DNA from: a virus
Taxonomy: Duplodnaviria; Heunggongvirae; Uroviricota; Caudoviricetes
Length of the DNA: 28,161 nucleotides
Strand: one strand, 5' to 3'
IMG/VR virus record: IMGVR_UViG_2579778529_000004
Coordinates: 1 to 28,161 of that record
Each line of letters opens with the position of its first letter. Positions within the stretch are counted from its first letter, which is position 1. A program made the position numbers. Below are positions 9,001 through 21,000 of this stretch, in pieces.

Positions 9001-12000
9001 GGGACGCGGATTCATATCTTCCAGGTCACGGCAGTCATTGGGAGAGTAAATTCCCCAGTTAATCCCGGTGGCGTAGGCTTCAAAACGGGACTTCATATCC
9101 CCGCGCAGTAACGCCCCGGCGTTAAATTTGGCGTAATAAACGCCCTGCTTACTTTTTCGTACCAGTCCGGTGTTGATCCGCTGTTCGATGCGGGTCAGAT
9201 ACGGCACCAGTGAATAGTTGATAAATCCGAGCCCCAGTTCTTCGATATTGTTGAAGGTGGCGCGATCGGTGTTCTGTACCATGTGCAACGGCACCCGGAA
9301 CAAACGACAGATTTCTTCAAGCTGAAACTTGCGGGTTTCCAGGAACTGGCTGTCCTCGGCGTTCAGCGCCATCGACTTCCAGTCCAGCCCCATCTCAAGG
9401 ATCATCGGGCGGTGAGCATTACCAAGCCCGGTGTGACGCTCCTCAAAATCTTTCTTCAGGCGCTCATAAGCCTGATCCGACAGCGTCTGTTCAGTACGCA
9501 ACACACCGGACGTCACCGCACCATTGCTGAACAGCCTGGCCCCGTGCTCTTCGGTCGCAGCTGCCAGCGATATTGCCTCGCGGGCATAGGCGATGGGATT
9601 CAGTCCCACCAGACCGTCCAGCGTCAGCGTGCGCACATGCCAGATATCCTCCTGGGTCAGCACATCCGTGGAGCCGTCCGGGAATGTGACCTGATAGACC
9701 GGTTCCCAGCTACTGTTAAGCTTCGGTACCACACAGCCGGGATCGACGGGCAGCAGTTCAGCCACTTCGCCAAATGCTTTCACTTTGTAGGCGTAAAAGT
9801 TTCCCCGCAGGCACAGACAGGTGACCACCAGCTCCCAGAACTCCTGCGGCGTCATATAGCCATTGGGATGCGTGGAGATCAGCTTATGCAGACGTTCGTC
9901 GGTGGCTCTCTGTTTCAGGCTGCCGTTCAGGTGATACAGATTGCAGGGCAACATCCCGACCGACTCTGCCAACACCCTGACGCAGGAAAAAACCGCCGTC
10001 AGTCGCATGGCCCGCTGGCTGCTGATCTGCTTTCCGGTATAGGTGTCATATGACAGCCCGATAGCATCCGCCAGCTCTGCTGGCGTGGTCACCGGCGCGT
10101 CACTTTTTCGTTGAAATAATCCCGAAAAGAACACTATTTACCTCCGCCGACAGACGGCTGTGTACGGTCGAGATATCGCGCCACCAACCACGACCAGAAC
10201 AGGCACAGCACCCCGGCAACAACAAAACCCGCCGGGGGATAAATCAGCCAGGCACCATACGCCAGCAAAAGCGCCCCCAGCACGCCCACCAGTGGCGCGA
10301 GAATTATCAGAAACATAATGACCTCGGTTAAAGCGAGCGGATGCCCACGCTGACCAGATGTTCAGACAGATCCGGCTCCGGTTCACCACCATTGACCAGC
10401 ATCCGGCTCATTGCTGTAAACATCGCAACAGGGCCGTCGATTTTGGCTTCCGGCGTGGATTTATTCGGGAAGATGTTGTCGTTTTTGTCCGGTTTTACCG
10501 TAACGTTAGACATCATCCAGTTCATGACCGGATGATTGCTGTGATGGAAACGCCCGGCATAGACCAGTGATTCCGTTTCCTTCATGGCCTCTGACAGATT
10601 GCGAACCGTCTGCGGAACCTCCACCAGCGGTATCCCTTCTTCAGCCAGTGCCAGGCTGAACTGCATCGCGCTCCACGGGTCAAATCCCAGTTCCCTGAGG
10701 TTTTCACCACCAATCCATTCCAGTAAGTCACTTTTTATCTGAGCATGATCGATAACATCACCATCCGTCAGAATCAGCTTATCCATCTCCGCCCACTTCC
10801 GGTAAAGTTCTGCCTGCTGCCGCGAGCATCGTTCCAGCCGTCCTTCCGGAAGCCAGAATTTAAAATCGGCATGAACATGCCCGTTATCCGTTCGCCAGAG
10901 TTTTGCCGCCGCACAGATATCAATCTTATGAGCAAGGTCAACGCCGACCCACATGGGATACGTTTTCAGCTCATGTCGTGGGGCAATGTATTCGCACTTC
11001 TCCCACTTAATCATGTCCATCCAGGCAGACTCTGCTGTTACCCACACATTCATGTGTTTGGTAAGAATATTTCAAGTTTTTTAAAATCACCTGTATATCA
11101 ATCGTTTAACATGAAAAAACAGTCTTTATAAATCATCAAGCAATACACAGCGCAATACACGTATCTGTATTGTTTTAATGCTGATACACACCGTTTTTTG
11201 ATACAGTGATTCGACCTACCATCGCGAAGAATTTTTTATTTCTTGTGTGTAACAATCTGACGAGGTGAGCACTCAAAGAGATAAGAGGCAGTAGAAATTT
11301 CGATCCCCCCTGAATGCAATTTTTCGTATATATATACAAAACAGCGCGGGTTATGCGGGTTAGCGGGTTATCTTCGCGTGCTAAGCATTTTTTACTCTTT
11401 AATATCAATAAGTTAAAAAAACAACGTATTTAAATATCAGCCAGAATATAACCCGCAAGACATTCAAAATAACCCGCAAACACCCCTCAAATAACCCGCA
11501 AAAACATCCCTGAAAGTGGGCGCTGGTAATACTGAAAATTTATTCCATTAAATGAGCATTGTCCTCTCTCATCCATTCCGTTACACACCATCAAACGCCG
11601 CAAGCCGCTCTTTGTGGCTGTCGCTCATATCGAATGCAAATTCCTCATGCTCTGCCTGGAATGTGCCAAACGCCATCAGCGCCGCAACGCTCGGGTCTAT
11701 CTTGTTGGATGATTTTTTCTTGTTCGGCTTGATATTGGCGTTCGCGTCACTCTGCATCACAACATTACTCATTGACCAGGCCAACACCGGATCACCACGA
11801 TGCACAATCACCTTCCGGTTAACAAAAACTTCGAACGATTTCGCCGCCGGACTGAAACGAAGATATGTTTGCGGGAACGGCTCCACCTCAAATCCTGCTC
11901 CCTGTAGCTGCGTCCTCAGGTGCGTGGCGTTCCATGTATCGAAGCCCACCAGCCTGATATTGAAATTCTCTGCATCCGCCATGATGTCATCACGGATACG

Positions 12001-18000: not shown

Positions 18001-21000
18001 ATGATCCACAACAAACAACGCATCGGAAGAAAGCAGACGGCGATATTTTTTTGCTGTCGTGGTTTCCAGATCATCAAAACCATGAAACTTTTTATGTTGC
18101 TGGACTTCTTCAAATGTCACTGGCATGTATCCCCCTTTGCTGCCCGGCGCTGGCGCTTGTGCTTCTCATTCAGCGCCATCAGCCGCGTTTCTGCCTCCTG
18201 CTGTTCCTGTGGTGTCACTTCCCCACATGGCTGGCCTTTCAGGTCGTATCGTACCCCACCAGCAACCAGGGCGCGGTAATAGCGCGGAGACTGCGCATAA
18301 GATGCCAGCGTCGCACGTAATGCCCCCGGCCCGAATGCCAGCCCCCTGACGGCGAGATCCTGCATCAGGTCGTCGAATATCCCCACCTTAAGCGGCTTCG
18401 GTGCTTCCCTGTTGAATAAGTCAGGCCACATCTCAGTGAGGCGGTTAACGCGCCTGCGGTTTTTGCGCTGGCGTTTGGTCATATGCCGCCACGGTGTCAC
18501 CCCTGTGGGCTGCCCTTTGCGGCTCTGCTGTGCGTTCTGATTGCCGGGTATCACTTTATGCGCCGATGTGGTTTTATCCCGCTCTTGCGCCGCCTGCGTC
18601 GTTTTCTGCGGCGTGCCGTAAATGCCTTTCGGTTTTCGGTTAATGGTCAGCTTTGTCATGCCTTCCCCTGTAATTACTCTGTTCGCTGTTGTGAATTAAA
18701 ACGGTATGTTATCCCCGTACAGGTCATCGTGCTGGCCTGTCTGTTGTTTTGCCCTGTTCAGTGCGTCAGTGGCCTGCCCCTGTTGGCCTTTTTTGCCGCC
18801 CGGTCGCGCCGTTCTCGCACTGATTACGCTGTCTGCGATGACCTGCCAGCCCTGCCGCGTTTCGCCGTTCTGCCCTGTCCACTGGCTTACCTGCATGTTA
18901 CCCGCCACGTTCACCAGTTCGCCTTTGCGGTGTTTTGCCAGTGCGTCGGCCTGTCTGCCAAACGCCAGGACGGATAACCACATCGTCGCCGTTCCGTCAT
19001 CTGCCTGGCTGCATGGCAGGGGAACCGCCATACTCGCCATCGCCATTTGTGTTCCCTTGCTGGTGGTCTTTAACTGCGGGTCAGCCACCAGCCGCCCGTA
19101 AGCCGCTATCTGTGCTGTCATGCTGTCTGCTCTCCGGTTTTAACGTTGATGGTTACGCTTGTTTACACCCTTACGGTGAAATTCTGCGGGTTATAATCGC
19201 ACTTTTGCGGGTTATAACTGCCGTTTTGCGGGTTACGTGCGGGTTATTGATTTCCTTTTTATTCATACAGTTAATGCACTTATATACATGATAACCCGCA
19301 TAACCCGCAACTTTTCACCTCACACAGGGGGTTAATCTTCTGCCTCAGGCTGGAACATCAGCACGTAAAAAACATGCTGCTTCCCCCCAATTTTGCCGAG
19401 CGCCTTTTTCTTGTAACGGCGATCGTTACCCGCTTCCAGCATTCCGGCAGCACTCAACGCGCGGGCAAAGTGAGACGGATTAAATCCCTGTGCTATCTCA
19501 CCCTCAAATACATGCGGGAACGTGTAAAAACGGAACTCGTCATCTTCGTTTCTGATACTCCCCTTTCTGTATCCGGCAAGTTCTTTAATCGGTAAATCAC
19601 GCTCGTCGGTATTGGGCCACGGAAGGTATCTGCTGAATCCGAACGACGCTAAAAAAGCTTCTGCCTGTTCAACCATCTGTTTAAATTCCCTGTTACCCGT
19701 GCCGAACTCCTTCACCCAGGCATTAAAATTATGCTGTATGGCATCGCGGCATTCCTGCTCATCCCAGCCAGTAACATGACCTGAAAGCACAAGCGCGGCC
19801 TCCAGTATGGCAAATCGCTCCCCCACACGGTGAACCTGTTCGCCGTAGCTCTCCGGTATCAGGTTGCGCCACCGCTCACGGCATGTCCTTACCGTGTCCT
19901 TTGCCTCCTGCTGGTGTTCTGCCAGCCATTTAACCCACTCACGACCCGCCGCCCCGTGATTTTCTGTCCAGGCATCCTTTAACGCGTCTGCGTGCGCCTT
20001 TCCGGTGCTGTATTCGTGAAATTGCGTGGCTTTTTCCATCGGAACGTTAAGCAGGCGGACAAGCTGCCCCGCTTTGACTTTTATCCCCTCCGTTTTGAGG
20101 AATGTCTCAACGTCCATTTCTCCGGTGCTGATTGCCACCGTGCGCCAGTGTTTGATCTCCCTGTTGCCGCCGTCCTTCGCCCCCTGTAATTTCCCCGAAC
20201 CGTTAAACAGCGTATAGGCTGACGTGGACACCTCCCGCGCGTTTCCGGCCTGGCCTATTTCATCCAGGGGTAAAAGCCCGTCATTGTGTGCCTCTGCTTC
20301 GTTGGCGATACCTAACGCTGTGCCGTACCAGGTCAGCCGCTGCGCGTCCGGCTCTCCCCATAAACTTGATGCGATGTTCTGTGTGGTGGTTTTCCCTGCC
20401 GATGACTGTTCGAAAAGATGTACCCCGAAGCCGTCAGCGCCCACCAGCCCGATTAATGGTGCGGATAACGATACCGCCACACCCAGCATCATGGACGGAT
20501 TACCACCAGCCAGCCGCGCAACGGTATCGCGCCAGCCCTCCGCCGTTCCTGCCACGGAATAGCCATTAACAGCAGCCGTTTTTCCGGTAAACAGGACTGG
20601 CTTTTCGCAATCACCAATGACCGAACCGTCCGGCATGATGTACGCGCCAAAATGCCAGCCCGTTGTTGTGCTTAACTGCCATTCCTCATGGCTTCCGCTT
20701 AACTGCATCCAGTCAGCCAGGATAGCCCTGTATTTACCGTTGGTTGTTACGTTCAGTCCGTGGTCTTTCAGCAACCGCCAGCCGTCACGGTCGCCAATGC
20801 CACCGCACGGAACCGCCATTGTGATGACTTCATGGTTTGCTAATTTTTTCCAGCGCATCACGCGGTAATGCTCTTTACCGATTGTCCCCGTTCCCAGTAG
20901 TTCAAGCGGGGAACATAACCACGTCTCAGGCCGGATAATTTCGCCTGACTGCTTATCCACTTTTGGCGTTACCCAGAAAACACCATCGGCGCGACTTTCA

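Follow-up and report, generated by a model that had tools for sequence, protein, structure and literature searches.

The replication origins of phage-inducible chromosomal islands (PICIs) have been defined by two opposed iteron sets around an AT-rich region, located immediately 3' of rep (PMC6092414, PMC9371898). They are described as a single block after this gene, a feature used as a diagnostic of the family, and no description of a double or split origin was found in the literature that we searched on PICIs, capsid-forming PICIs (cf-PICIs) and helper-embedded PICIs (HE-PICIs). A two-part layout is annotated in the genome of satellite phage P4 (NC_001609), where the cis replication region (crr, 4291-4590) and the ori iterons (9310-9413) are 4.7 kb apart. 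Here we analyze a stretch of 28,161 nucleotides of Caudoviricetes DNA (IMG/VR virus record IMGVR_UViG_2579778529_000004, positions 1 to 28,161; referred to below as the window) in which a satellite island interrupts a prophage, and where an earlier note had pointed out two clusters of the same 8-mer and had suggested for them the ori plus crr logic of P4. The reading we propose, with a probability of about 0.7, is that these clusters, A and B, are two modules of one satellite origin, both recognized by the island's own DUF927 Rep protein via its C-terminal domain. It is based on the homology of A to one half of the origin of relatives, the presence of one A and one B in each Rep island sampled, the conservation of the iterons, and the co-variation between iterons and the C-terminal domain of Rep. 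In more general terms, it is very probable that one and the same replication protein binds the arrays of both clusters.

Counting both strands, 14 exact matches to the octamer GCGGGTTA are present in the window, against 0.89 expected from 100 dinucleotide-preserving shuffles, in which the largest count was 4 and none reached 14; the octamer is enriched, and not equally frequent elsewhere. The count confirmed the two clusters, A (11346-11499) and B (19186-19308), about 7.8 kb apart, which hold 12 of the 14 copies. The statement that there were two clusters only needs to be qualified by two additional single copies, at 7271-7278 (- strand) and 7671-7678 (+ strand), inverted and 400 bp apart in the major capsid gene of the outer prophage; these do not form a cluster and are compatible with chance. 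The true repeat unit is about 10 bp long (TGCGGGTTAT).

Module B (19186-19308) lies between the DUF927 gene (19332-21455, - strand) and the gene for a single-stranded DNA-binding protein (SSB; 18696-19121, - strand), and it begins 24 bp past the stop codon of rep. It consists of four phased iterons on the + strand (19186, 19207, 19228 and 19239, with spacings of 21, 21 and 11), a 45-bp spacer with 76% AT (19247-19291) and a tandem pair on the - strand (19292 and 19301). Module A, a single unit of about 170 bp (11328-11499), begins with a TATATATATA element (11328-11337), followed by three tandem iterons on the + strand (11346, 11355 and 11363), a 78-bp spacer with 73% AT (11371-11448) and three iterons on the - strand (11449, 11470 and 11492, spacings of 21 and 22). 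It is located after the island terL, whose stop is at 11581, and 275 bp from the core of the attachment site (att), and so it does lie at the far end of the insert, as had been noted. The AT content of the whole island is 49%. Opposed iterons to either side of an AT-rich stretch, as in PICI and Staphylococcus aureus pathogenicity island (SaPI) origins, are thus found in both B (4+/45 bp/2-) and A (3+/78 bp/3-); with respect to the position 3' of rep, B is 24 bp past the stop codon and A is 7.8 kb away. Cluster B has the make-up of a canonical PICI origin. When module B is reverse-complemented, its tandem iterons, spacer and phased iterons line up in register with those of module A, which indicates that the full origin would be composed of two inverted copies of one unit.

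The relationship between both modules becomes apparent when the window is compared with an island of E. coli O157:H7 (L002; locus numbers are those of our comparison). The two islands have the same packaging genes, with terL, terS and the HNH gene 87% identical at the DNA level, the same GCGGGTTA iteron, and 90% identity in the 3' part of rep, but in L002 all 11 iterons are in one 310-bp block after rep. The rep-proximal half of this block (L002:13115-13266) is around 90% identical to module B, and the offsets from the rep stop are the same, while the rep-distal half (L002:12907-13060) is 79.5% identical to module A over 156 bp, in a match that takes in the TATATATA element and the spacer. By this alignment, cluster A is the displaced rep-distal half of a contiguous origin. 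A degenerate octamer, GATGGTTA, at 19148-19155 (+ strand), which aligns to the GCGGGTTA copy at L002:13073, can be taken as what is left of the central iteron by which the two modules are joined where the origin is contiguous.

The layout of L002 is the common one. Among 16 loci from other genera encoding relatives of Rep, most have the contiguous two-module layout, with 10-12 iterons, and overall it was found in L002, L005, L006, L008, L009, L011, L014, L016, L018, L027, L032 and L035, the last three of them E. coli islands. The two modules form one contiguous block of about 300 bp in O157-type islands and in eight other genera, and both are 3' of rep in L002, L027, L032, L035 and those eight genera. 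The iterons are lineage-specific (GTGGGTTA, GTGGTTCA, TTGGTTCA, CTTGTCCC and TGGGATAA) and identical in both modules of any one island, and the relative orientation of A and B is constant in all split and contiguous cases. The idea that the two-site layout was the ground plan of the family did not hold, therefore: since the modules are contiguous in most relatives, the split is a lineage-specific derivative of the PICI origin. Two variants of the contiguous arrangement were also observed. In a contig of an uncultured member of the Enterobacteriaceae, an insertion of around 170 bp (L007:4332-4501) parts the two modules, a split on a small scale. In Yersinia pekkanenii (L010) there are three near-identical copies (95-100%) of the ori region, at 7016-7692, 11598-12274 and 12779-13485, one of them inside the rep match, which could be due to a tandem duplication or to an assembly artefact near the contig end.

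The protein expected to bind these modules is the product of the DUF927 gene (707 aa; Pfam DUF927, 5.8e-46), an initiator-helicase of the SaPI-Rep/Cch type. It matches NCBIfam Cch1, the Cch helicase of the staphylococcal cassette chromosome SCCmec, with 1.9e-10, and the staphylococcal Rep deposited as PDB 8tch ("Pathogenicity island protein") with 3e-15 as a single sequence and 3.6e-16 as a family profile. No primase domain was detected in it, and no P4-family primase model of NCBIfam or Pfam matched. Cluster B does lie between this gene and the SSB gene, as the earlier note had it, but the "primase" of that note is a SaPI-Rep/Cch-type helicase. Iteron specificity would reside in the last 113 residues or so (595-707, encoded at 19335-19673, - strand). 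The Rep of an E. albertii island (L004) is 96% identical to that of the window in the core and 40% identical in this last part, and the iteron differs in both modules; in the Rep of L002, conversely, the N-terminus differs while the C-terminal domain is the same, as is the iteron. The two comparisons indicate that iteron identity in both modules follows the C-terminal domain of Rep. This domain occupies the same position as the winged-helix C-terminal domain of SaPI Rep (PMC9371898); in a profile search of PDB with Rep, the 8tch match stops short of it. A cognate Rep of the SaPI family with C-terminal iteron specificity is thus suggested by homology and co-variation, from which binding would follow. 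The locus resembles the PICI/SaPI origins in having a SaPI Rep homolog (8tch), opposed iterons, an AT-rich spacer, a module directly 3' of rep and a specificity assigned to the Rep C-terminus, and differs from them in that this Rep lineage has two inverted units, the second of which is here 7.8 kb away at the island end.

These data also bear on the possibility that the island is a true P4-family replicon, with homologous ori and crr elements and an alpha-type primase-helicase. The layout itself is indeed reminiscent of P4: in both cases a small integrative satellite has one octamer iteron in two clusters separated by kilobases, of which one is directly 3' of the replication gene and the other around 200-300 bp from the attP core. 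The crr of P4 is between alpha and attP, immediately 3' of alpha and with the attP core about 200 bp away, and its units (two iterons in tandem, a spacer, two inverted iterons and a direct one) have the same order as module A. However, in P4 it is the crr that is both rep-proximal and att-proximal, and the ori that is distal; the crr consists of two 120-bp direct repeats and module A of a single unit; and alpha is unrelated in sequence to the DUF927 Rep, the best BLASTP E-value between the two being 0.07 and the model hits of Rep being to DUF927/Cch only. Membership in the P4 family fails because the initiators are unrelated, A is not a repeat of 2 x 120 bp and the modules are contiguous in close relatives. 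We therefore consider a P4-family replicon highly improbable, and it is already contradicted at the protein level, as is the suggestion that a P4 alpha-type primase would be the binding protein. What remains of the proposed ori plus crr logic is the layout, without the homology; the element appears P4-like in outline but belongs, judging from Rep and the modules, to the PICI/SaPI origin family.

Split origins with cognate modules are not restricted to the window. In E. coli they were also found in L021, L023, L024/L028, L026, L029, L030, L033 and L034, with A-B distances of 4.5-10.9 kb and in five or more att sites. Two of the 16 loci mentioned above are split as well. In E. albertii L004, B (12162-12296) and A (14454-14580) are 2.2 kb apart and use the CTTGTCCC iteron; this island shares the window's flanking sequence beside A despite its different iteron. 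In Serratia (L013) the modules are 6.1 kb apart and the iteron is TTGGTTCA. Overall, distances in the split lineage range from 2 to 11 kb, with A at the island end; every gene that follows rep (ssb, proQ and the entire capsid/packaging operon) is located between A and B. Some of the split islands (L024:11295-18980, L025, L031 and L034:2937-10598) have three large hypothetical genes of about 2.5, 2.1 and 2.8 kb between B and A, replacing the capsid module, which may represent defence or other cargo. About 155 of 5,426 complete E. coli genomes, roughly 3%, have the module of the island end plus the flank on its att side. The C-terminal domain of Rep and module A occur in about 246 and 366 E. coli genomes, respectively.

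The distribution and conservation of module A allow an evaluation of whether it could be a functionless relic, i.e. an ancestral origin half stranded at the island end by rearrangement or cargo insertion. This would be in line with the fact that module B alone satisfies the published minimal definition of a PICI ori (PMC6092414), and with the existence of module A copies beside non-cognate replication modules, discussed below. On the other hand, among 12 distinct island-end copies the iteron bases are almost invariant, with 1 of 48 iteron columns varying as compared to 48 of 124 of the others (39%; Fisher p = 1.4e-7). Exactly one distal A was present in each of the 11 B-only islands sampled, while an extra cluster was found in none of 12 contiguous islands; to avoid a search bias, two of the split islands (L033 and L034) were chosen by a search for the B-only junction and not by A, and in both the distal A was present at the island end. 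The split layout is kept with three unrelated iterons, always matching the island's own B, and persists in about 155 genomes and at no fewer than five integration sites. In view of these results, a relic seems very unlikely, and the interpretation we favour is that module A would be a positive, cis-acting part of the origin.

Several points weigh against the two-module interpretation. The binding of Rep, the firing of the origin and the need for A in cis are all inferred here, and the single-sequence AlphaFold model of the Rep C-terminal domain had a confidence score (predicted local distance difference test, pLDDT) of 44, so that its fold was not confirmed. Independence of columns and of sequences is assumed in the column test, and the samples (11 split and 12 contiguous islands) are small and consist of related islands. 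Flanking sequence is common to the split islands of E. coli and E. albertii, which probably derive from one ancestral split, and this leaves about 2-3 independent origins of the arrangement. Finally, an intact GCGGGTTA module A is present at the end of two islands, L020 and L022, whose replication genes encode unrelated primases that have complete oris of their own, with GGTAGACA or GGTGAACA iterons. The expectation that the distal cluster would always be cognate is thus not borne out, and islands lacking a cognate Rep in cis can still retain A.

Identity between these orphan copies and the cognate ones is 93-95%, and the simplest reading of the orphans is that they may be leftovers of a recent swap of the rep-ori cassette in which the far module was left behind; in mosaic elements with a split origin, such stranding of the distal module is to be expected as a side effect. 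The presence of a co-resident cognate Rep was considered as an explanation and fails for genome BH100N, which holds L020 and has a single module-A place, whereas the genome with L022 has a second one. The GGTGAACA iteron is the reverse complement of the P4 type 1 repeat, TGTTCACC, and in L022 (18605-18817) the GGTGAACA/CTGTTCAC iterons of this cf-PICI form one block after the gene for a "DNA primase family protein".

With respect to the way in which the two modules might operate, each of them would be a complete unit of the SaPI/PICI type, with tandem iterons, an AT-rich spacer for unwinding and opposite iterons phased two helical turns apart, and Rep would bind both after excision of the island. 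In one possible mode, Rep would self-load helicase hexamers at each AT-rich spacer, so that the 14.6-kb circle would have two origins at roughly opposite positions. Alternatively, the Rep-bound modules could pair by looping, so that A would assist firing at B as the P4 crr assists ori. A match to the integration host factor (IHF) consensus, TATCAATAAGTTA, at 11403-11415 (+ strand), in the conserved left part of the module A spacer, could suit such bending or looping; the motif is retained in most aligned copies of module A, and the window contains four IHF-consensus matches against 1.2 expected. Neither module contains DnaA boxes, and terminator and promoter scans gave no promoter-like or terminator-like sites beside either of them; as there is no terminator between terL and module A, nor between rep and module B, both modules are probably transcribed through.

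The cis requirement in P4 was reportedly shown by Flensburg and Calendar in 1987 and by Ziegelin et al. in 1993. That A could equally be an obligatory cis element, acting over 2-11 kb by Rep-mediated pairing with B, is a tentative proposal that we regard as doubtful. If true, PICIs would have reached the ori/crr logic of P4 independently and with an unrelated initiator, and the orphan A copies could be functional handles by which an island is replicated by, or competes for, the Rep of a co-resident satellite, adding a layer of satellite-satellite cross-talk.

Module A could also act in the opposite sense, as a negative regulator that titrates Rep or handcuffs B and thereby limits copy number or causes incompatibility with satellites using the same Rep. 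Titration or handcuffing arrays are found in iteron plasmids, such as incA in P1 and the extra iterons in F, R6K and RK2. Module A has the iterons of the ori yet lies outside the minimal rep-proximal ori, and the orphan copies could be incompatibility or titration determinants against co-resident DUF927 islands, a situation for which the second module-A place in the genome with L022 would be suitable; BH100N, however, with its orphan and no other module-A place, has no rival to titrate. Like P1 incA, F incC, R6K and the oriP of Epstein-Barr virus (dyad symmetry element plus family of repeats), the island has a second initiator-binding array at a distance, but in those replicons the arrays lack an unwinding element or have negative, partition or enhancer roles, and the initiators are unrelated. 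Module A has the full grammar of an origin, an AT-rich spacer with iterons in both directions, which is more than a binding array, and in most relatives it is an integral and adjacent half of the ori. Strict copy control would also be less obviously useful to a satellite that needs burst replication after induction. A negative role thus seems unlikely to us, and a positive one in cis remains the favoured interpretation.

The finding does not overturn previous knowledge: what it describes is a two-unit PICI origin split by the cargo of the island. It does modify the picture of a single block after rep, because this Rep lineage would have a two-unit origin, the units of which are parted in roughly 3% of complete E. 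coli genomes by the entire late or cargo region of the island. The islands offer a natural series of distances (contiguous, 170 bp, 2, 4.5, 6, 8 and 11 kb, plus the orphans) that would be useful for asking in what way a self-loading helicase-initiator makes use of two loading sites, and whether these fire independently or loop as in P4. There are also practical consequences. cf-PICIs are under development as delivery vehicles, and annotating or engineering them with the rep-proximal cluster alone could omit half of the origin, while exchanges of modules between islands can result in origin halves that do not match.

As for the island itself, it spans 11072-25702 (14.6 kb) and interrupts the terL gene of the outer prophage, with which it is co-oriented and of which two pieces remain on the - strand (10328-11053 and 25537-26730). 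Intact terL homologs with 96-99% identity are present in phages 606R7, Evi and phi467, and that of vB_EcoM-606R7 is continuous across the junction, the window up to 11071 corresponding to 12160-12731 of the phage record and the window from 25703 to 12718 onward. This comparison defines the att core as an imperfect 14-bp repeat, with its left copy (TTGGTAAGAATATT) at 11058-11071, at the junction between the island and the prophage terL, and its right copy (TTGGTAAAAAAATT) at 25703-25716. It also ruled out as att core the GCAATACAC repeats, distinct from the iterons, of which there are two at the left island end (11140-11160, + strand) and two in the integrase-proximal arm (25552-25572, + strand). 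These are probably integrase arm-type sites of attP; an IHF consensus (11096-11108) is located between the att core and the left pair.

On the - strand, where every gene of the island is located, the tyrosine integrase gene (24308-25567; Pfam Phage_integrase and Arm-DNA-bind_3) is followed by those for an AlpA-like regulator, an antirepressor-like protein, a DUF4222 protein and the 707-aa DUF927 protein, and then by cluster B; next come SSB (Pfam SSB, 7.9e-16), immediately downstream of module B, ProQ, an HK97-type capsid protein, protease, portal, adaptor, HNH, TerS and TerL (11581-13242; Pfam TerL_ATPase and TerL_nuclease), the last gene before cluster A and att. The presence of int, alpA, rep-ori and its own capsid and packaging genes, the absence of tail genes and a size of about 15 kb correspond to the gene set described for cf-PICIs (Alqurainy et al., bioRxiv 10.1101/2022.09.08.507074), and the island is syntenic with L001-L003. 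It lies within a prophage terL and in the same orientation, as HE-PICIs do (PMC10111431), so that it is both a capsid-forming and a helper-embedded PICI, two categories that were already known. With respect to the cf-PICIs of the EcCIEDL933 type, gene set and order, the C-terminal domain of the DUF927 Rep and the GCGGGTTA iteron are alike, whereas A and B are contiguous after rep in the O157 island and here the origin is split and the island embedded in a prophage terL.

The location of module A, which follows terL directly and has the att core 275 bp away, might suggest a site for packaging (cos/pac or TerS) or for integration (an integrase arm), rather than for replication. However, islands without this terminase set (L004, L020, L024, L029 and L030) also end in the module, and in L002, with the same packaging genes, it is beside rep and 8 kb from terL. 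The att sites and integrases beside it are of at least five different kinds, and in the window the arm-type repeats (GCAATACAC) are separate from it. Both functions were rejected on this distribution and are hardly credible for module A, which fits better as part of the origin.

The outer prophage is HK97-like, of the phi467/Evi/606R7 type, and restoring its terminase would need excision of the satellite. The only genome record with 100% identity is that of E. coli EC416 (NZ_AP027404.1:3469004-3484844), where the match is around 1.3 kb longer than the window island, with an IS1414 transposase annotated under it; the window does not have that insertion. No Rfam families or tRNA genes were found in the window, and GC skew is set mainly by gene orientation and is uninformative on origin use. 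A direct repeat with 20 of 22 identical positions between the module A spacer (11426-11447) and the leader of the capsid operon (17772-17793), taken initially as a shared regulatory site, was discarded: it is missing from five other split or orphan cf-PICIs, where identity (14-15/22) is at shuffle level, and is thus specific to this island. Upstream of the same operon, just past a terminator-like hairpin of the preceding gene, there are three GAACAAC repeats (17796-17826), which may be a regulatory site for late-operon expression.

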